A stretch of 64,000 nt of DNA. Origin: a virus (Duplodnaviria > Heunggongvirae > Uroviricota > Caudoviricetes). How positions within the stretch are numbered: the first letter of the stretch is position 1; each line of letters begins with the position of its first letter. A model generated the notes under the pieces. It saw only the letters and a list, made by a program, of their open reading frames with translations, ran no database searches and had not been told where the DNA came from. The stretch lies in the IMG/VR virus record IMGVR_UViG_3300046820_001896, one strand, 5' to 3'. Shown one piece after another: positions 50,401-59,266 of this stretch. A program made the translations under genes and the position numbers.

Positions 50401-50766
50401 CCAATTGGTGGTTCTGCGACATCTAAGTACTTAACTCGTTTAATTAACTTAGAACAACCTTCAACGTTCTTGAAAGTTATGTTCGCAGCAAACATTCCTG
50501 CGGTCACTGATTCAGACATTGAAGTTTGGTACAAGTTAATCCCAACTGGTACAAACGGTGATATCTCTCAACATTCATTTGTGCGTGCTACAACTCCTCT
50601 TAAGAACGTTAAGAGAACATCTAACCCAGACGAGTTCGTAGATGTACAATACGATTTGACAGATCTTCCAGCATTTGATGGTGTTGTTGTTAAGTTAGTA
50701 TTTAAGTCTGGCAATAGTGCTCAACCTCCACGCGTTAAAGAGTTGAGAGTAATTGCTTGTGCATAA
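44410..50766 (+). CDS. giant structural protein (2118 aa), probable baseplate/tail-fibre component
   Basis: Uninterrupted 6.36-kb ORF. Its N-terminus YLRMLFRPGVSLQVRELNQLQ resembles a conserved domain of phage structural proteins (recalled from memory). Ser/Thr/Gly-rich beta composition. Confidence 0.7.
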   Translation: MSLKIFSQAPYNDDYDETKKYLRMLFRPGVSLQVRELNQLQTYLQTQIQRLGLHLFKEGSMVIPGQTAIDTKIVYLKIQPETNGVEISTILADLVGKTITGASGVQAQVLTYAAEEDTDPITLFVRYVASSDDEETKTFSAEELLTTTIDSEEYTLQILPSTDTPVGFGSIASIEAGVYFIKSQFVQVDSATIILSKYSNTPTYRVGLLATENIVTSNSDASLNDNANGSPNENAPGAHRYQLLLTFAKLAVDSELDENFIELLRIENGELKSKVETSTYSELAKTLARRTFDESGNYTVRPFKLAIREHRNNDRGQWQAFTEYRLGDIVKSGDNYFTAMETATSGSIEPATTFSETNPYQIYSDNNMDWNYTPRPSFNRGYKTPENGGSESSFAVAIEPGKGYVQGYEIEKIATEFLEVPKSREFARIDSDSIDIKYGNYVYVSNVRGVPDCTTYPTITLYDQLTPSTNSQASGAGNAIGTARLRAFEYDSGTPGASAVYKAYLFDLQMEAGYTFERDVKQFFYDSGTTLSNFVADVSQIYTTLSGTVSGSSTTVTGVGTKFTTELKVGDYIRVEDSAGALEVRRVTSITNNTTLAIASAFSGTVTGKTFQRVMTQVQDPSFTGLIFPLAQSFIRKVRGGENDATFATSYTTTQKFTGSTSSGQSTLTISVGAASGATTLGTEFNPSANKNEFVVINRSTGRPVNPTAINLLNNGADAQITGLSQSSSYTVFAPVRKAGTIAQEKKKTLVSNAVKDFTSIGAVQPLTLSLGKADGYRIVAIRMKNSGFTASSNPTETTDITDWYTFDNGQRETHYDVATITRKPGYPVPKGAVRVIFDYFDHTAGTAGDYFTVDSYSDIPFENIPYFTPAGGMIALADVMDFRPRINDVGTGYSSTGASPSELPKLGFETIASYSHYLARRDKLALDIEGRFFTISGVASTAPQEPKDPALGMMLAKLNVSPYTAFPSDGSVTIETIDTKRYTMRDIGKLDKRIENLEYYTALSLLENETKSLAIKDDVGLERFKNGFIVDNFKGQDLGDVASIDYRCSIDMTAQELRPFYTMDNVNLVEENQINADRTSDGYQLTGDIITLPYTHFKFITQPFASRTENVNPFAVFTFLGQMSLNPPSDDWFETDRRPDIITNVEGNFSAVQTQLEKQGVLGTVWNAWQTTWTGQTRNIDRLVVSRGFDSTNYGLGAGRWMDRRTFTAAELRAIGGDAPSFGNGAAGARVLTFQTQATTIGQSRSGITTSVVPKVDYEVVGDKVLQTSVIPYIRARELLFVCRGLKPNTKLNPFFDDASIQAYVTPATRLPITQNGSLEFDTETNAGAAANDIGRQVGGKPEVSFNKGDVVYVKTRGGTTYNSQVTSPARGVAVLKEKTTDTGAEAVYVLNVTGTFQGGDVIKGSLSGAEYIIQGSGSIATATQGSNLVTNFNGNLAGVFSIPNTDSMRFRTGVREFKLSDSVTGGNDFTTQGRGTYRAQGTLETKQRSVNAVRNSEIVTRPASETRTQEIFSPERIVRDTGWYDPLAQTIMIGSKGGAFLTKVDIFFSTKDANIPVNLQIRESVNGYPGPGILPFSKVTLNPDQIITSNDASLATTFTFESPVYVQDETEYCIVLLSDSNNYRVWISQLGEKNIGTDRFISEQPYAGVLFKSQNASTWTANQEQDLKFTVYRAEFNTNTEGVATFTNDILPPAVLDGNPFKTTLDSSKVRVSHRNHGMPAGSTVIISNVADGDYNGIVTTSTSGLNGEFIISNPEPDSYVIDTGTDADATGFVGGTDVVVSENVPMDAAQLITQSQTFSDTTLSYEMLTTDLSYNLATEATSVIPNETVYFGTSQQVASAINEETATPLNGSKSLKVIARLNTDNSALSPIIDTSRLSVATIKNRVDNFTYATKNVAGLDDIIVADAISGFTFDSGSPGTIFVPSTARSAVRSITVGKYVSVSGTTSNNTTIPVLVTAVAANGSSITTNYAGFTTESPANTTITLKDNFIDESVPIGGSATSKYLTRLINLEQPSTFLKVMFAANIPAVTDSDIEVWYKLIPTGTNGDISQHSFVRATTPLKNVKRTSNPDEFVDVQYDLTDLPAFDGVVVKLVFKSGNSAQPPRVKELRVIACA

Positions 50767-50992
50767 AGCTGTTAAAGTTGAAAATGAAGTAGGTCTCTAC
50801 CGAGACCTATCTTCTGGTGCTATTGTAAATACAGACGATAGCGGTAGAAATGCATATTTAAAACAGCGCAAAGCATTGCTTAAAGCTAGAGAAGAAACTG
50901 AACAAAACACTAGGGACATTCAAGAGCTTAAAGGGGAAGTTCAAGACATTAAGCAGATGCTAAGTCAGATTTTAGCACATGTCCAAAAATAA
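50753..50992 (+). CDS. small coiled-coil protein
   Basis: Overlaps the end of the giant gene by 14 nt. Confidence 0.35.
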   Translation: MLVHKAVKVENEVGLYRDLSSGAIVNTDDSGRNAYLKQRKALLKAREETEQNTRDIQELKGEVQDIKQMLSQILAHVQK

Positions 50993-51003: not shown

Positions 51004-52095
51004 ATGTCTGTCATAAACGTAAGTTTAGAAGATACATTCGAACAATGGAGAATTAAGACTAATCAGCTTGGTTCTACCATTGGTGATGCAGCTTCTCTTC
51101 AAACAACTTCAACAAATTTAGTTGCAGCAATCAATGAAGTTCGCAGTAATGCGGTCGTTGATGGTATCGTCACGACTTATGGCAATATATTTCAAATTAA
51201 TATTGATGAAGGCGATTCAGCTGAATTAATATTAGATTTGGACGGTAACTTAACATTAGCTGGTGATTTAATTGCTGACGTTACAGGTAACCTAAATGGT
51301 AATGCTAATACAGCAACGAAACTTCGTAATGGTCGTATTATCTCTATTACTGGTGATGCGACATGGGATGTAGTATTTGATGGATCTGCTAATGCAACCG
51401 GTCAATTGCAAATCAATCCAACAGGTGTTGTACCAGGAACATTTACTAAAGTTACTGTTGATGGAGATGGTAGAATATATGAAGGTTTTGATTTAGAAGA
51501 TACTGATGTTATTGCTGCTCTTGGATATACACCAGTAAGTGAAGATGCAGGTTATGATAATCCAAGTTGGCTGACTTCTATTAATGGTAATAAAATTAAT
51601 AGTGCAAGCAATATTACAATTGCTAACTTAACTGTTGGAAGTAGAGTATATCTTGGAAACGGTTCTGCAACTGCTCCAAGTATCGGGTTTTCTTCTGATG
51701 CTGCTCAAGATACTGGAATTTATTGGGGTGGAGATGGTTACACTTTCTTCACCAACAATGGTGTAAAAAGCGGTGAGATTCAACCTGGCGGAAACTTAGT
51801 GATGGTTGGTAACGTTGGTGGTTATTCAGATATTCGTCTTAAAAGGGATATTGAAACTATCAAAGGCGCTCTTGATATTGTTAATCAGTTAAGAGGCATC
51901 TATTATACGTCTATAGATACTAATGAACGTAGCGTTGGTGTTGTAGCTCAAGAAGTACAAAACAAAATTCCAGAATTAATTAGAGTTGGTGAAAATGGAA
52001 TGCTTTCAGTTTCATATGGAAACATGGGAGGTCTTCTTTTACAAGCTATCAATGAATTGACAGAGAGAGTAAAAGCTATCGAAGCTAAATTATGA
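51004..52095 (+). CDS. tail fibre protein with C-terminal intramolecular chaperone (peptidase S74-like) domain
   Basis: C-terminus YSDIRLKRDIETIKGALDIVNQLRGIYY ... GVVAQEV ... LLLQAINELTERVKAIEAKL matches the auto-cleaving chaperone domain of tail fibres. Confidence 0.7.
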   Translation: MSVINVSLEDTFEQWRIKTNQLGSTIGDAASLQTTSTNLVAAINEVRSNAVVDGIVTTYGNIFQINIDEGDSAELILDLDGNLTLAGDLIADVTGNLNGNANTATKLRNGRIISITGDATWDVVFDGSANATGQLQINPTGVVPGTFTKVTVDGDGRIYEGFDLEDTDVIAALGYTPVSEDAGYDNPSWLTSINGNKINSASNITIANLTVGSRVYLGNGSATAPSIGFSSDAAQDTGIYWGGDGYTFFTNNGVKSGEIQPGGNLVMVGNVGGYSDIRLKRDIETIKGALDIVNQLRGIYYTSIDTNERSVGVVAQEVQNKIPELIRVGENGMLSVSYGNMGGLLLQAINELTERVKAIEAKL

Positions 52096-52502
52096 CTTTA
52101 CAAACAACAGGATTAATCACTCTTAGAGATATAGCAAATGAGGCTGGGCAACCAACCTCATTTTCGCCTTCCCTATCGTGGGTTAAATCAATCGTAAAAC
52201 CCGCAAATAGACTTCCAACTAATGAGATTGACGATGTCTATGGATTTGCATATTTCCAAAAAAATTCTGAAGGCAACTGTGCTAACGGAAATTGTACAGC
52301 AAATTGTAATTGTGGAAATATTCAATGTACTAACTGCGCTATTACTGGAACAGTAAATTGTACAAACTGCGATACACAAGCTTGGTTACAACCAAATTGT
52401 AATTGTGCTTGCACATATAATTGTAACCAAACACAAATTAGCTATAACTGTGCGTGTGCTTGTGCATGCGCTTGTGCTTGTGCTGATGGTGGCGGTGGAT
52501 AA
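52092..52502 (+). CDS. Cys/Asn-rich precursor-like protein (about 75-aa leader plus about 60-aa core with 22 Cys, ending CACACACACACADGGGG)
   Basis: ATGA overlap with the tail-fibre stop. The core is built from NC.NC / C.NC repeats. It lies directly upstream of the radical-SAM/SPASM gene. Confidence 0.6.
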   Translation: MTLQTTGLITLRDIANEAGQPTSFSPSLSWVKSIVKPANRLPTNEIDDVYGFAYFQKNSEGNCANGNCTANCNCGNIQCTNCAITGTVNCTNCDTQAWLQPNCNCACTYNCNQTQISYNCACACACACACADGGGG

Positions 52503-52523
52503 ATAGTTATTTGAGGCGATATT

Positions 52524-53957
52524 ATGATATTTGAAATTTTAGCAGAACGCAGTGAAAAAGATAGAAAAACATTTTTTTACGATAATATAAAAAATGTCTT
52601 ATCTTCAGAGGATGGTTTCATATTTAGTGTGGAAAATAAAAAAACACACAATCATATTGCTATACCATTTTCTAAAAAATCCCCATTGAAAAAATCAAAG
52701 AATATTACAAAACTAAAGATCCAAATGGGTCTTTCGTGTAACTATTCTTGCGACTATTGTTCTCAAAAGTTTGTTGGTCGTCCACCAGAAACCAATAAAA
52801 AAGACATTGATGACTTTATGAAAAAGTTAGAGGTGTTAGAATTCACAGAAGAACAAGGTTTATCAGTAGAATTTTGGGGAGGAGAGCCATTCGTTTATTG
52901 GAAAACTATGAAGCCTCTCGCAGAAGCTATTATGGAAAAGTTTTCTCATTGGAAAAATAGACCTAAGTTTTCAGTGATCACAAACGGTTCTATCTTAACA
53001 AGAGACATTTGTGCTTGGTTATATTACATGGGGTTTTATGTTTCAATTAGTCATGACGGTCCAGGGCAAAGTGTCAGAGGTCCTGATCCATTCGAAGACG
53101 AAGAAGCAAAAAAGATCGTATTAGAATTTTACAAAATAATGAAGCCACAAGGTAGAATTAGTTTTAATTCTATGCTTAATTCTAAAAATAAAAATCGGAA
53201 AGCAATTCACGAATGGTTTATCAATTTTACTGGAGATCCCGAAGTTCCTTTAGGAGAAGGTGCTTTAGTTGATGCATATGATTTAGATGGTATGAATAAT
53301 TCACTATCTACTAAAGAAGAACATTTTGAATTTAGAAGAAATTCTTTTAATGATATTAGATCGAATAATGGTTATATTGGATTTGGAACTATATTACAAA
53401 AAATAGATGGTTTTACTAATTCAGTGATGAATCAACTACCAGCTTCTGGATTAGGACAAAAGTGTGGAATGGATGATCAACATGTTTTAGCGATTGATAT
53501 GAAAGGCAATGTATTAACTTGTCAAAATGTATCTGCTGTTGAAACTGCAATGAATGGTGAATCTCATTTAGGCGGAAACTTAGATGACTACGATAATGTA
53601 GAGTTAAAATCTTCTACTCATTGGGCAAATAGAGAAGAGTGTTCAAAGTGCCCAGTTTTGCATCTATGCAAAGGTTCTTGTATGTTTTTAGATGGTCAGT
53701 TTTGGAAAACAACATGCGATAATGCTTATTCTGATAACATTTCACTTTTTGCTTTAGCATTCGAAAAGATGACATCAGGGTATATTCCATTGTACATAAA
53801 TAGTAATGAATTATCCCCAGAAAGAAAAGATATTTGGGGAACAATATTAAGCCATAAAGAAGAACCTACTAAAAAAATTATTCCTATTATTGCTGTAAGC
53901 GAAAAAACAGTATTAAATGATGTAGAAGTCTATACACAAGCAAAGGTAACACAATGA
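52524..53957 (+). CDS. radical SAM enzyme with C-terminal SPASM domain
   Basis: CNYSCDYC (Cx3Cx2C), GGEP and ITNGS motifs. SPASM Cys series CGMDD ... LTC ... CSKCPVLHLCKGSC ... C. Confidence 0.85.
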   Translation: MIFEILAERSEKDRKTFFYDNIKNVLSSEDGFIFSVENKKTHNHIAIPFSKKSPLKKSKNITKLKIQMGLSCNYSCDYCSQKFVGRPPETNKKDIDDFMKKLEVLEFTEEQGLSVEFWGGEPFVYWKTMKPLAEAIMEKFSHWKNRPKFSVITNGSILTRDICAWLYYMGFYVSISHDGPGQSVRGPDPFEDEEAKKIVLEFYKIMKPQGRISFNSMLNSKNKNRKAIHEWFINFTGDPEVPLGEGALVDAYDLDGMNNSLSTKEEHFEFRRNSFNDIRSNNGYIGFGTILQKIDGFTNSVMNQLPASGLGQKCGMDDQHVLAIDMKGNVLTCQNVSAVETAMNGESHLGGNLDDYDNVELKSSTHWANREECSKCPVLHLCKGSCMFLDGQFWKTTCDNAYSDNISLFALAFEKMTSGYIPLYINSNELSPERKDIWGTILSHKEEPTKKIIPIIAVSEKTVLNDVEVYTQAKVTQ

Positions 53958-54274
53958 TATTAATTGATGTAGAAAGTCAAAATTTGCCTGAATTAATTCG
54001 TTTATATAAGACTATTCCTTATGTTGTCCAAATAAGATGCAATAAAATATTAAGACAGCATTATAAAGATTTTGTAGGAGAAGATGGTTTGTATGTTGCA
54101 TGTTTAGTGCAGGTGAAGTCAGGCGAAGACAAATATTTAAAGTTTGAAGATATCTTATCTAAAGAGGTGTGGGATGATCCCATGCAATATCAATATTGTC
54201 TGCAGAATATGAAATTAAAAATAGATGATTACATAGAAAATGATGTTCTTCCAAAAACACCATATAGCGAGTAA
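53954..54274 (+). CDS. small protein, paralog A of tandem pair
   Basis: About 30% identity to the next ORF, including a shared C-terminal IDDYI.ND motif. ATGA overlap. Confidence 0.5.
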   Translation: MILIDVESQNLPELIRLYKTIPYVVQIRCNKILRQHYKDFVGEDGLYVACLVQVKSGEDKYLKFEDILSKEVWDDPMQYQYCLQNMKLKIDDYIENDVLPKTPYSE

Positions 54275-54276
54275 TT

Positions 54277-54573
54277 ATGGAAACACCTAATTTATTAACT
54301 TTAGTAAATCGTCTTAGACAAACTGAACATGTTACGCAAGTTAGATATCACCAAGTTTTAAAACAACGTTTTAGAGATTTAGTTGGAGTAGATGGTATTT
54401 CAATTGTATGTTTACTTACTAATAAAGCTAATCCTGAAAATTTTGTGAAAATTGTAACTATTTTAGAAGCTTCAGTAATTGAGAATTTAGAACGACATGA
54501 TGCTATCATAGAAGATATTAAAACAAGAATCGATGATTATATCATCAGAGATATAAGGCCACCAAAATTCTAA
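54277..54573 (+). CDS. small protein, paralog B of tandem pair
   Basis: Paralogous to the ORF at 53954-54274. Confidence 0.5.
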   Translation: METPNLLTLVNRLRQTEHVTQVRYHQVLKQRFRDLVGVDGISIVCLLTNKANPENFVKIVTILEASVIENLERHDAIIEDIKTRIDDYIIRDIRPPKF

Positions 54574-55307
54574 TGTTAACAGATCAAGAAATTAATGACT
54601 ATTACGATAGTCTTGTGCCAGTTATGCCAAGACCAGAAGATCGTGTCGTAGATATGTCATTTAAAAATACTAATACCAACATTCTAATATCTGCCGGTAG
54701 ATTATTAGCTGTTGCCAATTATTCTGCAAGCGTAAAAGCATTAGCAGAATTTAATAAATCTAATATTTTTACATTTCAATTAGTAGGAATGGAAGAACGT
54801 CCAAATTTATATTTTCAAAAAAATAAATGTTGGAGAATTCGTGTTACTGAAGATGGTAAAGCTTGGCAAGATTCGCCTAATATTGAATCAATCGAACAAT
54901 TATATGATTTTATTTTAATCTCTCAAAAAGCTGCAGTCTTAGATGTTATTCATCGTCGTTTAGATATGAATAGACGTAGAGAAATTAAAGCTGCACAAGG
55001 TCAAAATCACATCTATTTTGCAAAATATTTAGAAGCAAAAGAAATCCTTGAAAAAGGAATTACTGAAGATCCTATTTGTAAATATCCATTTGTTACTGGA
55101 TATGCTGATTTAGTCGGAATGGATATTGTAGAAGCATCTAAGCGCATTAAATTTAAGTATGAAACTCGTGCATCATTTTTAGCAGAAAATGAAACGCTTA
55201 GATTAAAATATACTGCATTCGTTAAACAGCAAACTACTCTGGAAGATTTAGGTGCTGTGTTAGAACAATTTAAAGCTGAAAGCACAAAGTACGGCGATTC
55301 ACTATGA
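54573..55307 (+). CDS. hypothetical protein (244 aa)
   Basis: taATG overlap. Confidence 0.5.
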   Translation: MLTDQEINDYYDSLVPVMPRPEDRVVDMSFKNTNTNILISAGRLLAVANYSASVKALAEFNKSNIFTFQLVGMEERPNLYFQKNKCWRIRVTEDGKAWQDSPNIESIEQLYDFILISQKAAVLDVIHRRLDMNRRREIKAAQGQNHIYFAKYLEAKEILEKGITEDPICKYPFVTGYADLVGMDIVEASKRIKFKYETRASFLAENETLRLKYTAFVKQQTTLEDLGAVLEQFKAESTKYGDSL

Positions 55308-56425
55308 GCACTATATTTTATAATAGTTATGATATCTTCGTAAATGAAGCATATCATGAAAAACGCAATCAAATTCCAGGTGGTCATGCATTTGGTGGTT
55401 ATTTTCAATTATTTTCTAGCAATATTACATCTATTGACAGAACGAATACATTTAGTATACCACTAAAGACTACTGTATTACCTCATCTTCAAATGCCAAA
55501 AATGAGAACATTCACTAAATCATTTAGTGATATTTGTGATGATAGAGCCATTGAATTGATGAATAAAGCTAAGACAGATAATCGTAAGATTGCGGTTATG
55601 TACAGCGGAGGAATTGATTCTACTGTTATTCTGTGTGCTTTATTAAAGAACTGCACAGAACAAGATTTAAAAAACCATGTAATTGTGCTTTTGACAGATC
55701 ATAGTATTTTAGAAAATCCTAATTTTTATAATGACTATATTATCAAAAAGTTTGAATGTGTTTCAAGTTATAGATTTCCATATTTCCTAGGGAATGATGA
55801 TTACATCGTAATTTCTGGTGAAAATGCAGATCAATTGTTTGGTTCACAAGTAGTTGCTAAATTTATTGCATATCGTTCGTTTGATTATTTGTTTACTCCA
55901 TTAGATCAAGCTGCTGGGGATATCATTGATTGGATGACTATGAAATTGCAAGATGAATATAAAAAATATGCGCCTTATTATTGGCAAATGTTTAGACATC
56001 TTTGCAATGCTGCTCCGATTCCTATTGATAACGTATATAAATTTTTCTGGTGGATTAACTTTACAAACAAATGGCAATCAGTATATGTTCGTATTTTACC
56101 ATACGCTAAAAATAGAAGTAATATTAAATTAGAAGATAATTACACTACGTTTTTCTGCCCGCAAGATTTCCAATTGTGGTCATTAAATAATCCAGATAAT
56201 CTAGTAAAAGAATCTTTAGATAATGTAAAATATATCGCAAAAGATTATATTTTAGATTTTAATGGAGATCAATCTTACTATAAAAAACCTAAGATTGGTA
56301 GCTTAACTAATATTGTGAAGCAAAAAGAAATTGTTATGTTATTAAATGATGATATGACATTTACAAATGACTACCCAGATAGTCAACACTGGAATGAAAC
56401 AAACACTTTTTCGGAGATGATGTAA
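55304..56425 (+). CDS. PP-loop ATP pyrophosphatase superfamily protein (QueC / Asn-synthetase-like adenylating enzyme)
   Basis: SGGIDS PP-loop inside IAVMYSGGIDSTVILCALL, near residue 100. Confidence 0.6.
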   Translation: MSTIFYNSYDIFVNEAYHEKRNQIPGGHAFGGYFQLFSSNITSIDRTNTFSIPLKTTVLPHLQMPKMRTFTKSFSDICDDRAIELMNKAKTDNRKIAVMYSGGIDSTVILCALLKNCTEQDLKNHVIVLLTDHSILENPNFYNDYIIKKFECVSSYRFPYFLGNDDYIVISGENADQLFGSQVVAKFIAYRSFDYLFTPLDQAAGDIIDWMTMKLQDEYKKYAPYYWQMFRHLCNAAPIPIDNVYKFFWWINFTNKWQSVYVRILPYAKNRSNIKLEDNYTTFFCPQDFQLWSLNNPDNLVKESLDNVKYIAKDYILDFNGDQSYYKKPKIGSLTNIVKQKEIVMLLNDDMTFTNDYPDSQHWNETNTFSEMM

Positions 56426-57069
56426 TGATTATTGAAAACAAGATTGATGTGCTAGATACGATGTATCCTTGTTATGCTGAAAAAGTAGTAAATGCATTAT
56501 ATCACTCTAAAGCATATTGTACATTATATGGATATATTATGTCAGGAGAAGTTACATTTCCTAATGGAAGTGTAGCTGTAGAAGGGCAATATTTTTGTTA
56601 TTGGACTGGTGAAGGTGATTCTATTAGAACTACTGGTGAAGTTTACATATTCACACGCTTTGGATTCAAAGGACAAAACACCATTGGTGGTCCAATTGAA
56701 GAAAGCGGTCGTTTAGTTTATATAGATTCTTGTTCTGATAGTTTATTGGTGTATCCTCCTAGAATGGGAGATCCATCTTTAAACTTATTACAATTTCCTT
56801 CTGCTGTCAAACAATCGTATCATATCCATCCGAGCATTAGACTTGGAGTAGTTGTAAAAGGTAAAGGATATGCTTGTATCAAAAAAGCATATGAAGAAGA
56901 ACAAATTGAATTAAAGCCAGGTGTTATGTTCTGTATAGAAGAAAGAGAACAACATCGTTTTATGACAACATACGATGAAATGACAGTTATAGCATTCCAT
57001 CCAGACGGTGATTGGGGTCCAACTGATCATAATCACACAATGTTAAACAGAACATATATTACGAAATAA
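56425..57069 (+). CDS. cupin-like protein
   Basis: Loose HIHPS ... G ... EEREQHRF pattern. Weak evidence. Confidence 0.35.
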   Translation: MIIENKIDVLDTMYPCYAEKVVNALYHSKAYCTLYGYIMSGEVTFPNGSVAVEGQYFCYWTGEGDSIRTTGEVYIFTRFGFKGQNTIGGPIEESGRLVYIDSCSDSLLVYPPRMGDPSLNLLQFPSAVKQSYHIHPSIRLGVVVKGKGYACIKKAYEEEQIELKPGVMFCIEEREQHRFMTTYDEMTVIAFHPDGDWGPTDHNHTMLNRTYITK

Positions 57070-57081
57070 TCGGAGAAAAAT

Positions 57082-57441
57082 ATGGCAGCGCCAAATATCG
57101 TTAACGTTTCAAACATTACTGGAAAAACAGCTGTAATGTTTGTTACTACATCTGCGCAAGATCTTATCACAAATCCTGCATCTAGCAATAAAGTTTTAAA
57201 ACTAAATAGTTTGACTATTGCTAACGTTAACGGAACTGCAGCTGCATCTGTGACTGTTAGTATTTTTAGAAGTTCATCAGAGTATAAACTTGCACATACT
57301 GTTTTCGTTCCAGCAAATGCTACTTTAGTTGTAGTATCAAAGGATAGTGGAATTTATTTAGAAGAAGGCGATAGTTTACGCATTGTCGGATCAGCAAATA
57401 ATTATTTGCATGCAGTATGTGGATATGAGAGCATTAGTTAA
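57082..57441 (+). CDS. beta-rich structural protein
   Basis: Strong RBS cggagaaaaat. Confidence 0.45.
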   Translation: MAAPNIVNVSNITGKTAVMFVTTSAQDLITNPASSNKVLKLNSLTIANVNGTAAASVTVSIFRSSSEYKLAHTVFVPANATLVVVSKDSGIYLEEGDSLRIVGSANNYLHAVCGYESIS

Positions 57442-58073
57442 TGTCTTTACGCAACAAAGGTAAAGCTGGTTATATTGGATACGACCGTGTTAGTAGTCCT
57501 GATGTTGGAAGCGGTATATGGAACTTAAACCAACATCACACAGCTGTATCTGATTATAGTTGGGCTGGTCAGTCTGTATACACAAACTATGATGGAAATT
57601 TAAATGGTTTTACTGTTAGCGGAGCTACTACTAGCAGTAATGCCATATATGTTCCAGGAAATAGTTATGCATATAGAGATATGATATCTCCGTTCACTAG
57701 TTTATTATTTAAAACAATGACTTTTGAAGTTTATATTAGCGGCGGAGTATGTGGTGTATTAATTGGAAGTTCTACTGCCGGTAGAGGACCTTTATTAAAA
57801 CTAGATGCACGTGGCGGCAGTAATTATAGCGGTATGATGTTCCAAACTTCTTGGACTGTTAGAGGTGATCCTCCAGTTACCGGTGTGCAATTACCAGCGA
57901 ATTCATGGGTACCTGTGCGACTAGAAGTTAATAATGCGATGCGTATTGACTGGTCTGCAAATAATAGGTATGATCGTCAACCTATTCTTTTATCTGGTCC
58001 ATTTATTACATTCCTTGGATTAGGCGGCGGCGGTTATTTTAGAAATATTAGAGTTTATAATGGTGTATCATAA
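57441..58073 (+). CDS. tail fibre-like protein with N-terminal GIWNLNQ motif
   Basis: It shares the GIW(N/H)L(N/K)Q N-terminal motif with the next gene. Confidence 0.45.
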   Translation: MSLRNKGKAGYIGYDRVSSPDVGSGIWNLNQHHTAVSDYSWAGQSVYTNYDGNLNGFTVSGATTSSNAIYVPGNSYAYRDMISPFTSLLFKTMTFEVYISGGVCGVLIGSSTAGRGPLLKLDARGGSNYSGMMFQTSWTVRGDPPVTGVQLPANSWVPVRLEVNNAMRIDWSANNRYDRQPILLSGPFITFLGLGGGGYFRNIRVYNGVS

Positions 58074-59266
58074 TGTATAACGGCGGAATATTTGGTAAAA
58101 AAAATTATCCAAACGTTTTTAATGCTAATGGTATATGGCATTTAAAACAAGTTGGGGATTTTATACATCGTGGTGAATGGTATTTTGCAAGAAGCGCAAC
58201 TGTTAATGCTACTTCATTTTTAGAAGGTGATACTATCACTGTTACAATTAATGCTCCAAGCTTACCAGACGGTACAAAACTATATTGGACTATTAATACT
58301 GTTTCAGGAACTATTCGTACAGATGATTTCGATAATCGTATTTTGAATGGTCCGCTTTCTATTATTAATGGAAAAGATACGACTAGTAGAAAATTAGAAA
58401 CAAGTAAACAAGGAGATGGTAATAGATCATTTACTATTGCTATTAGAACTGAATCTGTAGAAGGTCCAATTATTGCAACTACTCCTGTTTTAACACTAGA
58501 CGACGTAGCTCGTGGCGGTAATGCCATTTTTGATAGAGGTGGATATCGATATCATAAATTTACTTCTTCTGGTAATTTCCTTTGTAATCGTTCTCTCGGT
58601 TTAACTGTATTTGCAGTTGGCGGAGGCGGTGGCGGTGGCGGTAATGGTGGAGGTGGCGGCGGTGGCGGAGGTATCGTATATACAAATATCTCTGTTGGAG
58701 CTGGAACTTATTTTATTGGAATAGGTGGAGGAGGAAGCGCAGCTCCTAATGGTAGTGTACACGGAGGAAACGGTGGAGCTACCACATTTCAAGGATTTAT
58801 AACTGCTAATGGCGGTGGCGGTGGTGGCTCTCGAGACACAGATCGTAACGGTTATTATGGTGGTTCAGGTGGTGGTGGATCTAGTAATGGTGGAGGAGGT
58901 GGCGGTACTCCTGGCCAAGGTAATAATGGTGGTAATGGTATTATTGCTGGTTCTGGTGAAGTCCAATCTACTGGCGGTGGTGGCGGTGGATATGGCGGTG
59001 GTGGACAAAACGGTGCTGCTAAAGATGCTGGTAATGGTGGACCAGGAGGTGCATTTGATCCAACTGCCGACGGTACTGCAGAATATTATTCTGGCGGCGG
59101 AGGTGGAGGTAGAACTGTTTTCGGTACTACTGGTTCAAATGGTCAAGGGCAAGGTGTCAATAGAGGTGGAGGAGGTAAAGGCGGTTCTGGAGGATCGACT
59201 TCATTTGCTGCTCAAGCTGGAGACACAGGCTATTGTGTAATTCGTTATTTGATTCCGAGTAATTAA
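58073..59266 (+). CDS. glycine-rich tail fibre-like protein (long GGxGG tracts), N-terminal GIWHLKQ motif
   Basis: 397 aa. More than 40% Gly in the C-terminal half, encoded by ggtggcggtgg repeats. Confidence 0.55.
   Translation: MYNGGIFGKKNYPNVFNANGIWHLKQVGDFIHRGEWYFARSATVNATSFLEGDTITVTINAPSLPDGTKLYWTINTVSGTIRTDDFDNRILNGPLSIINGKDTTSRKLETSKQGDGNRSFTIAIRTESVEGPIIATTPVLTLDDVARGGNAIFDRGGYRYHKFTSSGNFLCNRSLGLTVFAVGGGGGGGGNGGGGGGGGGIVYTNISVGAGTYFIGIGGGGSAAPNGSVHGGNGGATTFQGFITANGGGGGGSRDTDRNGYYGGSGGGGSSNGGGGGGTPGQGNNGGNGIIAGSGEVQSTGGGGGGYGGGGQNGAAKDAGNGGPGGAFDPTADGTAEYYSGGGGGGRTVFGTTGSNGQGQGVNRGGGGKGGSGGSTSFAAQAGDTGYCVIRYLIPSN

Follow-up and report, generated by a model that had tools for sequence, protein, structure and literature searches.

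Gene content of the locus

The window, the whole 64,000-nucleotide stretch of DNA that was analysed, derives from a large phage and carries a cassette of seven genes inside a tail-fibre operon. All listed open reading frames are present on the + strand (Table 1), and the layout given gene by gene in the original prediction was borne out, although its count of six genes falls one short of its own list. The tail-fibre gene that it placed ahead of the cassette has a C-terminal S74 domain (Pfam Peptidase_S74, PF13884, 3e-11, residues 275–325), and its product matches PHROG tail-fibre families with E-values as low as 8e-31. The stop codon of this gene is overlapped (ATGA) by the start of the gene for an Asn- and Cys-rich protein, here termed the NC protein. 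A radical SAM (rSAM)/SPASM enzyme, two small paralogues, a 244-aa protein, a PP-loop protein and a cupin follow in that order. Junctions within the cassette are ATGA overlaps, 1-nt overlaps or gaps of 2–21 nt, in agreement with the tight packing described earlier, and no credible terminator was found in the cassette; the sole hit, at 52450, falls in TGYGCN repeats encoding CACACA.

Table 1. Positions of genes, domains and motifs at the locus, in window coordinates.
Feature	Position	Strand	Basis or remark
79-aa conserved small protein, cluster c27	50753..50992	+	precedes S74 fibre gene in related tail operons
Tail-fibre protein with C-terminal S74 intramolecular chaperone domain	51004..52095	+	Pfam, PHROG
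NC protein, 136 aa, presumed substrate	52092..52502	+	~56-aa N-terminal domain, Asn-Cys-repeat core (residues 59–131), DGGGG end
NC protein N-terminal domain, residues 1–56	52092..52259	+	AF2, HMM
NC-repeat core and tail, residues 59–136	52266..52499	+	conservation table, motif scan
Radical SAM/SPASM enzyme, 477 aa	52524..53957	+	Pfam, NCBIfam, PHROG
CxxxCxxC radical-SAM cluster motif (C72, C76, C79)	52737..52760	+	invariant in alignment A1
SPASM region, seven auxiliary-cluster Cys (C314, C333, C373, C376, C382, C386, C398)	53463..53717	+	invariant in A1
c39 domain protein a, 106 aa, third conserved component	53954..54274	+	paralogue of next gene
c39 domain protein b, 98 aa	54277..54573	+	paralogue of preceding gene
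c23 protein, 244 aa	54573..55307	+	obligate partner of PP-loop protein
PP-loop ATP-pyrophosphatase-like protein, 373 aa	55304..56425	+	invariant SGGxDST
Cupin-fold protein, 214 aa	56425..57069	+	Cupin_2, conserved His triad

The two small proteins encoded after the enzyme, c39 a and c39 b, are true paralogues, as had been proposed (31% identity, E 9e-21). c39 a is homologous to the C-terminal half of ~220-aa proteins encoded after the rSAM gene in the type B cassettes described below (hhalign, 94–97%), and its AF2 model has a pLDDT of 80. An RRE-like fold was sought in c39 and not found. The c23 protein has no match in Pfam, PHROG, NCBIfam or the PDB, and its gene always adjoins the PP-loop gene, with or without an rSAM gene. 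The PP-loop itself, recognized earlier as SGGIDS, is clear from residues S101, G102, G103, D105, S106 and T107, all invariant in alignment A2. Its HMM matches are weak and below cutoff (1.5e-3; ATP_bind_3, 18.7 bits against 27), as are those to LarE, TilS and AsnB (NCBIfam E ≥ 7e-4, far below cutoffs), and its PDB profile matches are restricted to the motif region. No named Pfam or NCBIfam PP-loop family scored above its own cutoff for this protein, whose own family of 1,318 representative clusters is much larger than the cassette. The last protein had been called cupin-like. Its His triad (H133, H135, H177) is invariant, but the Cupin_2 match (4e-6, 26.9 bits) lies 0.3 bit under the cutoff of 27.2, and the usual motif 1 Glu is not evident.

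The rSAM/SPASM enzyme and the NC protein

The assignment of a radical SAM enzyme with a full SPASM domain holds. Both Radical_SAM (PF04055; 6.4e-9, 36.6 bits against a cutoff of 29.5) and SPASM (TIGR04085; 35.3 bits against 27) score above cutoff, phrog_1802 matches at 1.2e-63, and the SPASM spacing is canonical (C-x13-G-x4-C ... C-x2-C-x5-C-x3-C ... C), with G328 also invariant. At least 3,018 proteins make up the large, unnamed family to which the enzyme belongs. Its best HMMs are thioether cross-linkers, namely PapB (1e-20), geopeptide (3e-19), QhpD (5e-19) and CcpM (3e-17), and its top structure matches are 8vpo, CteB and anSME. The PapB equivalog NF047865 is the best NCBIfam match, yet reaches 74.3 bits against a cutoff of 340 and indicates a distant relative only. 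QhpD (TIGR03906), the third-best match, covers residues 61–387 at 68.2 bits against 453, a functional analogy only. It had been considered that the closest homologues might be anaerobic sulfatase maturases or QueE-type enzymes; they are neither, and the nearest are the peptide and protein cross-linkers PapB, QhpD, CcpM and CteB. The sulfatase maturase model TIGR03942 scores 45.4 bits against a cutoff of 349, and the viperin HMM covers the rSAM core only. Likewise, in PADLOC the match to pVip is confined to the core (residues 70–183) and is not full length, while the other six cassette proteins match none of its defence models.

The NC protein contains 18 Cys and 18 Asn, and its 11 NC dipeptides compare with 3 in the runner-up among 366 six-frame ORFs of the window. 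Its core and tail (residues 59–136) hold all 18 Cys and include a (CA)6 run, alternating CxCxC runs, a GGGG end and six NxxC spacings (at 65, 71, 76, 102, 104 and 119), and the core has no Arg or Lys. Across 98 sequences, the Asn before each conserved Cys is 89–100% conserved, only Asp ever taking its place, and the ~75-aa core is strongly conserved, like a folded domain. Candidate Cys donors and Asp/Asn acceptors at a short fixed spacing, which characterize ranthipeptide/NxxC substrates, are thus present in this protein. The N-terminal domain is modeled by AF2 as small and helical (pLDDT 70–86), whereas the core, as a monomer, is not folded. An HMM of the N-terminal domain retrieved almost exclusively NC proteins (73 of 74 matches). 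Its fold matches to Gp38-domain proteins are weak and not significant (E 0.2–0.7).

Pairing of the two genes across phages and prophages

The rSAM/NC pairing is found in hundreds of phages and prophages. Of 87 viral loci, 79 have an NC-domain HMM match, invariably next to the rSAM gene and on the same strand, and the misses are mostly at contig edges; adjacency repeated this often places the arrangement far beyond chance. A distant prophage clade, mostly from freshwater Burkholderiales (rSAM identity 34–49%), has a tail-fibre ORF ending in a (xC)≥4/NC repeat just upstream of the rSAM gene in 61 of 78 loci, against a background of 2 in 4,080 for ORFs ending in (xC)≥4. These NC-tailed prophage ORFs are tail fibres (PHROG E-values down to 5e-89). 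In 67 of 69 cases an rSAM and its nearest neighbour agree in NC architecture, compared with a shuffled mean of 19. The two proteins thus co-diverge, which may reflect mere shared ancestry. The cultured phages of the collection lack this rSAM (RSP15, JWF and 2-1 excepted) and lack the NC protein.

In relatives, the NC core occurs in fusions with S74 chaperones, Hint domains, poly-Gly domains or entire tail fibres, and the repeat is often the very tip of the fibre. Where an S74 domain follows (2.2e-7), it begins directly past the NC core, as in locus L005, immediately after '...CDCFW'. In phage JWF, a Hint domain starts immediately past 'NCNCSC'. S74 and Hint are the only cleaving domains in relatives, and both lie C-terminal to the core. 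Whether through a stop codon, an S74 chaperone or a Hint domain, the NC segment always becomes the mature C-terminus, which argues for a structural module of fibre type, rather than a secreted peptide, as the substrate. The earlier description of a Cys/Asn-rich, precursor-like ORF therefore stands in part: the protein is a near-obligate partner of the rSAM enzyme, but it is not a classic leader-core peptide, since its N-terminal domain is folded, its ~75-aa core is strongly conserved, and fusions of this core to structural domains occur in relatives.

The genomic setting varies. The NC gene overlaps an S74 fibre gene in the window, in locus L003 and in a Paraburkholderia prophage (L088), and in different phages the pair of c27 and S74-fibre genes lies upstream of cassettes of types A, B and C, so that the slot after the fibre gene is taken by all three types alike. 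About half of the viral loci have the cassette outside tail operons, amid small early-type genes, and incorporation of the free-standing small NC form into virions is for this reason only putative. The window cassette, regarded in the original prediction as unusual, is no one-off: it represents type A within a widespread family that has at least three different accessory sets. These sets split cleanly by the C-terminal residue of the NC protein, GG with PP-loop/cupin and Trp with halogenase. In the rSAM set, the c23/PP-loop/cupin trio accompanies GG-ended NC proteins in 9 of 10 cases and never other NC types. Sister cassettes encode a Trp halogenase (8e-95), a B12-rSAM and an Asp/Asn hydroxylase, and in types B and C, 2OG oxygenases and Trp halogenases flank the rSAM/NC pair; both enzymes are missing from the window cassette.

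A candidate maturation system for tail fibres

The region 52092–54573 would encode the core of a system that matures protein for the tail-fibre apparatus, in which the rSAM enzyme laces the NC protein by thioethers. We hold this reading to be somewhat better than an even bet. The core would consist of the NC protein, the rSAM/SPASM enzyme and the two c39-domain proteins. In the cytoplasm, the enzyme would act on the Asn-Cys repeats that make up the C-terminal core of the NC protein, most probably forming many thioethers from Cys sulfur to a side-chain carbon of a nearby Asn (or Asp) at NxxC-type spacings. An otherwise unfoldable segment would become a compact, covalently laced, redox-independent knob, either a structural part of the fibre or attached to it and presumably present in the virion. 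The c39 proteins may be dedicated partners, perhaps in substrate handling. The trio, a separable module, probably tailors the Gly-Gly C-terminus in the window lineage via ATP-dependent carboxylate activation.

Comparison to known systems suggests where this chemistry may lie. PapB–PapA, NxxcB–NxxcA and CteB–SCIFF have in common with the cassette an rSAM core, a 7-Cys SPASM and an adjacent substrate gene, and ranthipeptide/NxxC substrates are C-terminally Cys-rich with Asn/Asp at NxxC-type spacing from Cys, as in the NC protein. However, the cassette enzyme scores far below these family cutoffs, and no RRE, leader protease or exporter was detected. The substrate here is a structural protein of 130–600 aa with up to ~18 Cys rather than a peptide of 20–50 aa, and, unlike in ranthipeptide systems, the carriers are phages and prophages in a tail-fibre context. 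QhpD, also an rSAM-SPASM enzyme, introduces several Cys-to-Asp/Glu thioethers into a small protein, QhpC, that is retained in a larger assembly and not secreted. The QhpD–QhpC pair differs from the cassette in its unrelated substrate family, its dehydrogenase context and its Asp/Glu acceptors, where Asn is presumed here. NxxcB forms Cys–Asn C-beta thioethers and tolerates Asp (PMC9389541). Resembling those of NxxC, PapB and QhpD, the reaction is most likely the formation of multiple Cys-to-Asn/Asp thioethers, with Asn and Asp as presumed acceptors. For cyanophage arrays of 2OG-Fe(II) dioxygenases and tryptophan halogenases, a peptide was predicted as the target of modification (Iyer et al. 2010, PMC2938197), but neither an rSAM nor an identified substrate was part of that description. 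These enzyme families recur in type B and C cassettes and not in the window cassette. The T4 gp37 HxH-iron needle, S74 fibres and gp38-type adhesins resemble the cassette in a repetitive alternating-residue motif at the distal fibre tip. S74 chaperones are freed by self-cleavage, as in the NC–S74 relatives, and gp38-type adhesins are small proteins encoded right after the fibre gene, as is the NC protein. Compared to the gp37 tip, the NC residues are Cys and Asn, not His. We know of no metal-laddered or chaperone-assisted fibre tip with an enzyme-made covalent cross-link.

The gene order of precursor, rSAM-SPASM enzyme and tailoring enzymes led to the original reading of RiPP biosynthesis. In a classic diffusible RiPP, the N-terminal ~56 residues would be a leader, and the NC core would be cross-linked, cleaved and freed at lysis or delivered by the virion as a bacteriocin-like or host-manipulating product. 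The natural-product-style tailoring enzymes of sister cassettes, an N-terminal domain almost confined to NC proteins and the many cassettes outside tail operons are consistent with this, yet we consider it improbable. A SPASM enzyme with a Cys/Asn-rich partner is what survives of the RiPP reading; the substrate is not of leader-core type, and its core is conserved as a folded domain would be. Peptidase and transporter families are absent from the seven window genes and from the type B and C accessory clusters, no cassette type has a protease, transporter or immunity gene, and no RRE (PqqD-like wHTH), fused or stand-alone, was found in the cassette proteins. NC ends on tail fibres, S74 trimerisation chaperones and Hint fusions would also make no sense for a secreted peptide. 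Alternatively, the repeat could be a metal, Fe-S or disulfide structural motif, like the gp37 iron ladder or Cys-laddered beta-helices, with the rSAM enzyme modifying it otherwise or aiding assembly; epimerisation, a C-C or C-O cross-link, methylation and Cys oxidation would then be options for its reaction. The CxCxC runs are extremely Cys-dense, AF2 fails on the monomeric core as it would for a metal- or oligomer-dependent fold, and S74 fusion implies trimers. All equivalog HMM scores are far below cutoff, so they do not pin down the reaction, which could differ. We rate this motif as unlikely but credible: Asn is kept as strictly as Cys with Asp the only substitute, a pattern of beta-thioether acceptors and not of metal ligands, the top-ranked rSAM relatives form thioethers, and the sulfatase-maturase motif C/S-x-P/A-x-R is absent from the NC protein, whose core has no Arg.

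A question separate from the chemistry is whether the cassette is two unrelated neighbouring modules, a fibre-related one of NC, rSAM and c39 genes and a trio serving, for example, nucleoside, tRNA or small-molecule modification. The trio occurs without rSAM or NC genes in loci L178/179 and L182-L188, where it neighbours genes for RNR, deaminase-like proteins and Fe-S assembly, and its role in NC-protein maturation is therefore putative. The size of the PP-loop family and the fact that known enzymes match by the PP-loop motif alone point the same way, and such independence is a serious possibility, if a little short of even. Against it stand the link of the trio to GG-ended NC proteins, the six genes kept together across different genomic contexts, their translational coupling and one PP-loop family member fused to a phage tail assembly chaperone domain. 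It is highly improbable that the enzyme is an auxiliary metabolic or host-takeover gene with a host target, sulfatase-maturase-like or viperin-like, and that its NC neighbour is incidental. The JWF homologue is annotated in GenBank as an anaerobic sulfatase-maturating enzyme and there are generic rSAM-core matches to pVip and anSME, but adjacency to NC genes persists in both the viral and the prophage loci at rSAM identities down to 34%, the two proteins co-diverge, the anSME score is far below its cutoff, and viperin matches the rSAM core alone.

Three roles had been suggested for the modified product. Comparative data favour the cross-linking of a fibre-associated tip, whereas the fibre, S74 and Hint fusions disfavour a secreted peptide. 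We found no prior description of the rSAM/NC system in the literature, and it looks like an undescribed means by which phages chemically cross-link their host-recognition apparatus.

The tail-operon cassette and its radical SAM enzyme

The window derives from a large myovirus, with T4-like baseplate hub and wedge genes at 35.9–44.4 kb and 12 tRNA genes at its start (53–2891; Met, Thr ×2, Pro, Gly ×2, Leu, Arg, Ile, Trp, Lys and His). Seven plus-strand genes follow the S74 fibre gene (Table), with the identities and junctions that the original prediction had assigned; it had listed all of them, although it spoke of six. Between 52092 and 57069 the genes are joined by ATGA overlaps, 1-nt overlaps or gaps of 2–21 nt. 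The claim that no terminator interrupts the run also held: a search across the cassette found no credible one, the sole candidate, at 52450, lying inside coding TGYGCN repeats for CACACA/(CA)n. An Rfam search found no RNA elements in the region, excluding an RNA-element reading, and a defence-system reading was rejected because PADLOC matches were limited to the generic rSAM core. The GC content of the enzyme genes (52524–57069) is 31.1%, compared with 37.6–38.6% in the flanking structural genes, which suggests that this low-GC island was acquired separately from the tail operon. The initial observation is confirmed. The giant DUF4815 protein of the window is homologous to ORF044 (1644 aa) of Ralstonia phage RSP15, where it lies just downstream of the rSAM gene, and it also precedes the S74 fibre in loci L003 and L060.

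Features of the window cassette and of related loci
Feature	Position or loci	Strand	Description
DUF4815 protein, 2118 aa	44410–50766		Directly upstream of the S74 fibre
Tail fibre, 363 aa	51004–52095	+	C-terminal Peptidase_S74 (Pfam 3e-11); PHROG tail-fibre families down to 8e-31
NC protein (Asn-Cys repeats), 136 aa	52092–52502	+	18 Cys, 18 Asn, 11 'NC' dipeptides
Radical SAM/SPASM enzyme (rSAM), 477 aa	52524–53957	+	Pfam Radical_SAM 6.4e-9; NCBIfam SPASM TIGR04085 above cutoff; phrog_1802 1.2e-63
Small paralogues (cluster c39)	53954–54274, 54277–54573	+	Mutual identity 31%, E 9e-21
244-aa protein (cluster c23)	54573–55307	+	No family match in any search
PP-loop protein, 373 aa	55304–56425	+	Invariant SGGxDST; HMM matches all sub-threshold
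Cupin, 214 aa	56425–57069	+	Cupin_2 26.9 bits against cutoff 27.2; three invariant His
Type A cassette	Window and 11 other loci		NC ~130 aa ending GG, rSAM, c39 ×1–2, c23 ×1–2, PP-loop, cupin
Type B cassette			NC ~130 aa ending ...CW, rSAM, ~220-aa protein, 2OG-FeII_Oxy_5 ×1–2, Trp halogenase (Pfam 8e-95)
Type C cassette			rSAM, NC ~300 aa, small EF-hand-like, 2OG oxygenase, c6, FA_desaturase-like, Asp/Asn beta-hydroxylase (3e-8)
Shared slot, type A	Window, L003		
Shared slot, type B	L010–L012		
Shared slot, type C	L060, L061, L065		
W-ended NC proteins	L010–L012, L016–L019, L024, L027, L030, L033, L040, L047, L049, L053, L055, L068, L070, L085, L086		
Stand-alone 244-aa/PP-loop(/cupin) genes	L178, L179, L182–L188 (e.g. 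L178 5154–7853)		

An alignment of eight rSAM homologues (42–76% identity) revealed an invariant C72-x3-C76-x2-C79 motif and an invariant SPASM signature (C314-x13-G328-x4-C333, C373-x2-C376-x5-C382-x3-C386 and C398). The predicted radical SAM enzyme with a full SPASM domain is therefore borne out by Pfam Radical_SAM, by TIGR04085 and by seven invariant SPASM cysteines. The highest-ranking curated models are without exception peptide or protein cross-linkers, led by the PapB ranthipeptide maturase (1e-20), a geopeptide maturase (3e-19), QhpD (5e-19) and CcpM (3e-17). At 45 bits (5.5e-12; cutoff 349), the anaerobic sulfatase maturase (anSME) model was a far weaker match; QueE-like ones were marginal. 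A profile search of the PDB returned 8vpo (3.5e-16) and CteB (1.9e-12) ahead of anSME (2e-7). Thus, the curated models and the PDB search favour cross-linkers rather than the anSME or QueE kinship that would have spoken against peptide maturation. Every equivalog cutoff was missed by a wide margin, and the enzyme therefore represents a separate family.

The NC protein as partner of the enzyme and as a probable fibre module

The NC protein stands apart within the window, its 11 NC dipeptides comparing with three in the runner-up among 366 six-frame ORFs. An HMM built from NC-rich ORFs was run on six-frame ORFs from the window, 80 IMG/VR loci and six others, 87 loci in all. It matched in 79, and every match lay on the same strand as, and directly beside, the rSAM gene; the eight misses comprise five loci cut by contig ends, two distant cultured phages and the single further locus L074. 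Loci nearly always agreed in NC architecture with their nearest rSAM neighbour (67 of 69; shuffled mean 19.4, maximum 36). The rSAM and the NC protein are very probably an enzyme–substrate pair.

The window cassette belongs, as one variant among others, to a large family. At least 3,018 rSAM relatives, all unnamed, were found at E ≤ 1e-20 in a metagenomic protein collection, and at least 527 loci in IMG/VR; the NC family has 165 detectable members, all annotated 'hypothetical'. Among cultured phages the rSAM occurs only in RSP15 and Achromobacter phages JWF and 2-1 (42–46% identity), and it adjoins tail-fibre genes in RSP15 and in JWF, where it is gp030, the two contexts examined among these three. 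A nucleotide search of the cassette region against cultured phages gave no match, nor did tblastn with the NC, PP-loop and cupin proteins, where the low-complexity filter may mask NC matches. An assembly of Paraburkholderia sp. BCC1886 carries, within a multi-fibre tail operon, an S74 fibre (Gp34_trimer and S74), an NC protein joined to it by an ATGA overlap, and the rSAM. Accessory enzymes are absent, so this locus represents a minimal form of the cassette. On a 359-kb contig and a relative (L005 1–2600; L006 1090–3783), the cassette instead lies away from tail genes, its neighbourhood including a DNA ligase, a TctC-family protein and a large protein with an Amidoligase_2 domain.

The N-terminal ~56 residues of the NC protein are modeled by AF2 at pLDDT 70–86, and of 74 matches to an HMM of this domain all but one are NC proteins. 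In fold comparison the domain matched 'Receptor-recognising protein Gp38 domain' proteins weakly (E 0.2–0.7, ~3 Å over ~54 residues), a lead rather than evidence. The core, ~75 residues long (59–131 in the window protein), has a domain-like conservation, unlike a hypervariable RiPP core, with the consensus GNCNNGNCT-NCNCGNIQC-NC-I-G-VNC-NCD-Q-WLQ-NCNCACTYNC...YNC-C-C-C. Its ending varies: at some loci a stop codon follows '...GG', '...CW' or '...NCNC'; at L005 Peptidase_S74 begins straight after '...CDCFW' (Pfam 2.2e-7, from residue 135); at others there is a ~170-aa domain of no known family with a hydrophobic end. NC proteins with this last domain, of type C ('CSKIICTKL...ADQxYGxWL...VYRGYxxWA', TM-like end; L020 2856–3758, L057 3608–4546, L062 8169–9065 and ~25 others), are accompanied by a membrane protein resembling fatty-acid desaturases and by an Asp/Asn beta-hydroxylase. 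At L014 and L176 the core lies behind a poly-Gly domain in proteins of 364–367 aa. There, the NC core shares one protein (L014 311–1405; the 367-aa ORF upstream of the rSAM in L176) with the N-terminal domain and a long poly-Gly domain, which connects the module with the Gly-rich proteins that are frequent in these tail operons (57441–59266 in the window, phrog_2295).

The same repeat also occurs within tail fibres. The JWF tail fibre gp028 carries 'QNCNCDCNCNCSC' followed at once by a Hint domain (Hom_end_hint 3e-12, from residue 308), and the RSP15 side tail fibre, ORF048, has 'NTNCQCGN' as its C-terminus. Fibres with an NC repeat directly followed by Hint (intein/hedgehog-type) were seen at L100 4208–5338, L114 4733–6262 (Burkholderia paludis MSh1) and L002 5799–7250 (JWF), a fibre architecture that is itself unusual. 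Scanning bacterial genomes yielded 174 loci, mostly from freshwater Burkholderiales (Limnohabitans, Polynucleobacter, Comamonadaceae and B. paludis MSh1) with rSAM identities of 34–49%. Among the 78 with a usable rSAM ORF, 61 have a plus-strand ORF 1.6–4.5 kb upstream that ends in an (xC)≥4 repeat, for example '...YNFNCNCNCACDCCC' or '...NCRTNCNCNCNCNCCGCC'; nearly all exceptions have too little upstream sequence, and the background is 2 of 4,080 minus-strand ORFs. Seven of ten such ORFs scanned matched PHROG tail-fibre families (E down to 5e-89) and, judged by sequence, these proteins are bona fide tail fibres. In alphaproteobacterial loci L158, L160 and L163 (e.g. L158 4208–5062), a 'YCSYCSYCSYCTYC' (Tyr/Ser-Cys) repeat replaces part of the NC repeat before 'NCNCDCGD'.

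S74 and Hint domains are known to self-cleave. In every architecture except type C, the NC repeat comes to lie at the mature C-terminus, either through a stop codon or through an S74 or Hint domain expected to self-cleave. Of the RiPP-like reading in the original prediction, the enzyme logic stands but the peptide substrate does not, the NC core being found as a fibre-type structural module. The NC product is probably part of the fibre apparatus.

Accessory genes and genomic position

Clustering of neighbour genes defined three viral cassette types (Table), type B often with a B12-type rSAM (3e-15). C-terminal residue and accessory set partition cleanly across the viral loci. GG-ended NC proteins accompany a PP-loop gene at 9 of 10 loci, the remaining one truncated. 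W-ended proteins ('...CACACW') accompany a Trp halogenase at 18 of 19, the exception again truncated, and 2OG-FeII_Oxy_5 genes at all 19; NC proteins with the long C-terminal domain accompany an Asp/Asn hydroxylase at 22 of 28. No cross-combination of the PP-loop and halogenase sets was found among the viral loci compared. The co-occurrence with halogenase and 2OG-FeII_Oxy_5 genes suggests that the C-terminal Trp of W-ended NC proteins is halogenated.

Other components recur between types. Homology (hhalign 94–97%) links the window c39 proteins to the C-terminal half of the type B ~220-aa post-rSAM proteins, whose families are mutually related (97–99%). This makes a c39-domain protein the third conserved component; its AF2 model (pLDDT 80) showed no RRE-like fold. 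In the prophage clade of the bacterial scan the genes run fibre-NC, d3, d2 ×1–3, (d13/d14), rSAM. Here d3 corresponds to cluster c38, while both d2 and d13 encode 2OG-Fe(II) oxygenases (hhalign 98% to c2; Pfam 2OG-FeII_Oxy_3 3.4e-6). DSBH-fold oxygenases thus accompany the rSAM/NC pair in both clades, and the window cupin may be their counterpart. PDB profile searches with the 244-aa and cupin proteins gave no significant match. By BLASTP neither resembles the rSAM-flanking genes of RSP15 and JWF, so these accessory genes are not universal.

The six accessory genes do not form one obligate unit, since the trio of 244-aa, PP-loop and cupin genes is separable. In 9 of 25 viral loci c23/PP-loop(/cupin) genes occur with no rSAM or NC protein within 6 kb, beside RNR, dCMP-deaminase-like and IscA/NifU-like Fe-S assembly genes; L186 carries two or three copies of the module. 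The PP-loop family comprises 1,318 representative clusters. One distant member, P0391 (534 aa), is fused to Phage_tail_APC, a tail assembly chaperone (Pfam 1.1e-12), and another, P0372, carries a GNAT acetyltransferase domain. That the trio acts on the NC protein has about an even chance of being right; because the trio also occurs apart from the pair, a role in NC maturation is plausible rather than established.

Types A, B and C share one slot in related tail operons, right after a 79-aa gene (cluster c27) and the S74 fibre gene, which speaks for a link to that fibre and for cassette exchange at a hot spot. Because the cassette sits among small non-structural genes in roughly half of the viral loci, a place in the virion for the free-standing small NC form is something we infer.

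Likely chemistry and significance

QhpD introduces several thioether bridges into a subunit that remains part of a protein complex. Each conserved core Cys of the NC protein is preceded by an Asn that is 89–100% conserved, with Asp as the sole substitute, and the window protein has six NxxC spacings (N65, N71, N76, N102, N104 and N119). No anSME motif was found in the protein, and its core lacks Arg and Lys. The rSAM enzyme NxxcB joins Cys to Asn C-beta in an NxxC motif by a thioether, tolerating Asp, Ala or Gln as acceptor, and PapB makes Cys–Asp beta-thioethers (PMC9389541). The thioether-forming SPASM kin, the co-conserved Asn/Asp–Cys pairs, a monomer core that AF2 does not fold and the lack of an anSME motif together argue for multiple Cys–Asn/Asp thioethers, a modification that we consider no more and no less likely than its alternatives. 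A metal- or disulfide-based ladder, with the rSAM catalyzing a different reaction, is possible; because AF2 with 98 sequences gave a core pLDDT of 26–50, geometry does not separate thioether from metal or disulfide models. As a plausible rationale, thioethers would give fibres, which fold in the reducing cytoplasm without disulfides, a covalent, redox-independent stabilization ahead of lysis.

With such cross-links the window system would work like a ranthipeptide/NxxC or QhpD–QhpC system. Unlike these, its score fails each named family, and no RRE, protease or exporter was found. Cyanophage arrays of 2OG dioxygenases and Trp halogenases, predicted to modify peptides, were described by Iyer et al. 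2010 without a substrate or rSAM (PMC2938197), in contrast to the rSAM/NC pair here. Our search of the freely searchable literature turned up neither NC-repeat proteins nor a phage fibre as the target of an rSAM, and nothing on phage tail fibres that enzymes cross-link covalently or that carry other radical modifications. The radical chemistry would be of a known kind; what is new is the class of substrate and the biological setting. Current thinking credits the stability of fibre tips to trimer interdigitation, metal ions and chaperones.

Tentatively, and with somewhat less than even likelihood, we propose a widespread, hitherto unrecognized class of fibre-tip or tip-associated proteins laced by a dedicated rSAM-SPASM enzyme through Cys–Asn/Asp thioether ladders and then diversified by exchangeable tailoring sets. 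These sets would include Trp halogenase, 2OG and Asn hydroxylases, B12-rSAM and PP-loop/cupin proteins. The analysis delimits a large family of substrates and enzymes, whose thousands of members are found in aquatic phages and in prophages of Burkholderiales. It provides the halogenases and 2OG oxygenases of phages with a concrete substrate to test, and may offer new rSAM chemistry on protein-sized substrates. Cultured carriers for experiments are phages JWF and RSP15, Paraburkholderia sp. BCC1886, B. paludis MSh1 and Limnohabitans strains. If the proposal is true, phages use RiPP-type radical chemistry to build host-recognition hardware whose receptor-binding surfaces are chemically modified, and there would be a substrate for the oxygenase/halogenase clusters that have long been a puzzle in aquatic phages. 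It would also imply a new principle, in which proteins that must survive outside the cell receive redox-independent cross-links while still in the cytoplasm.
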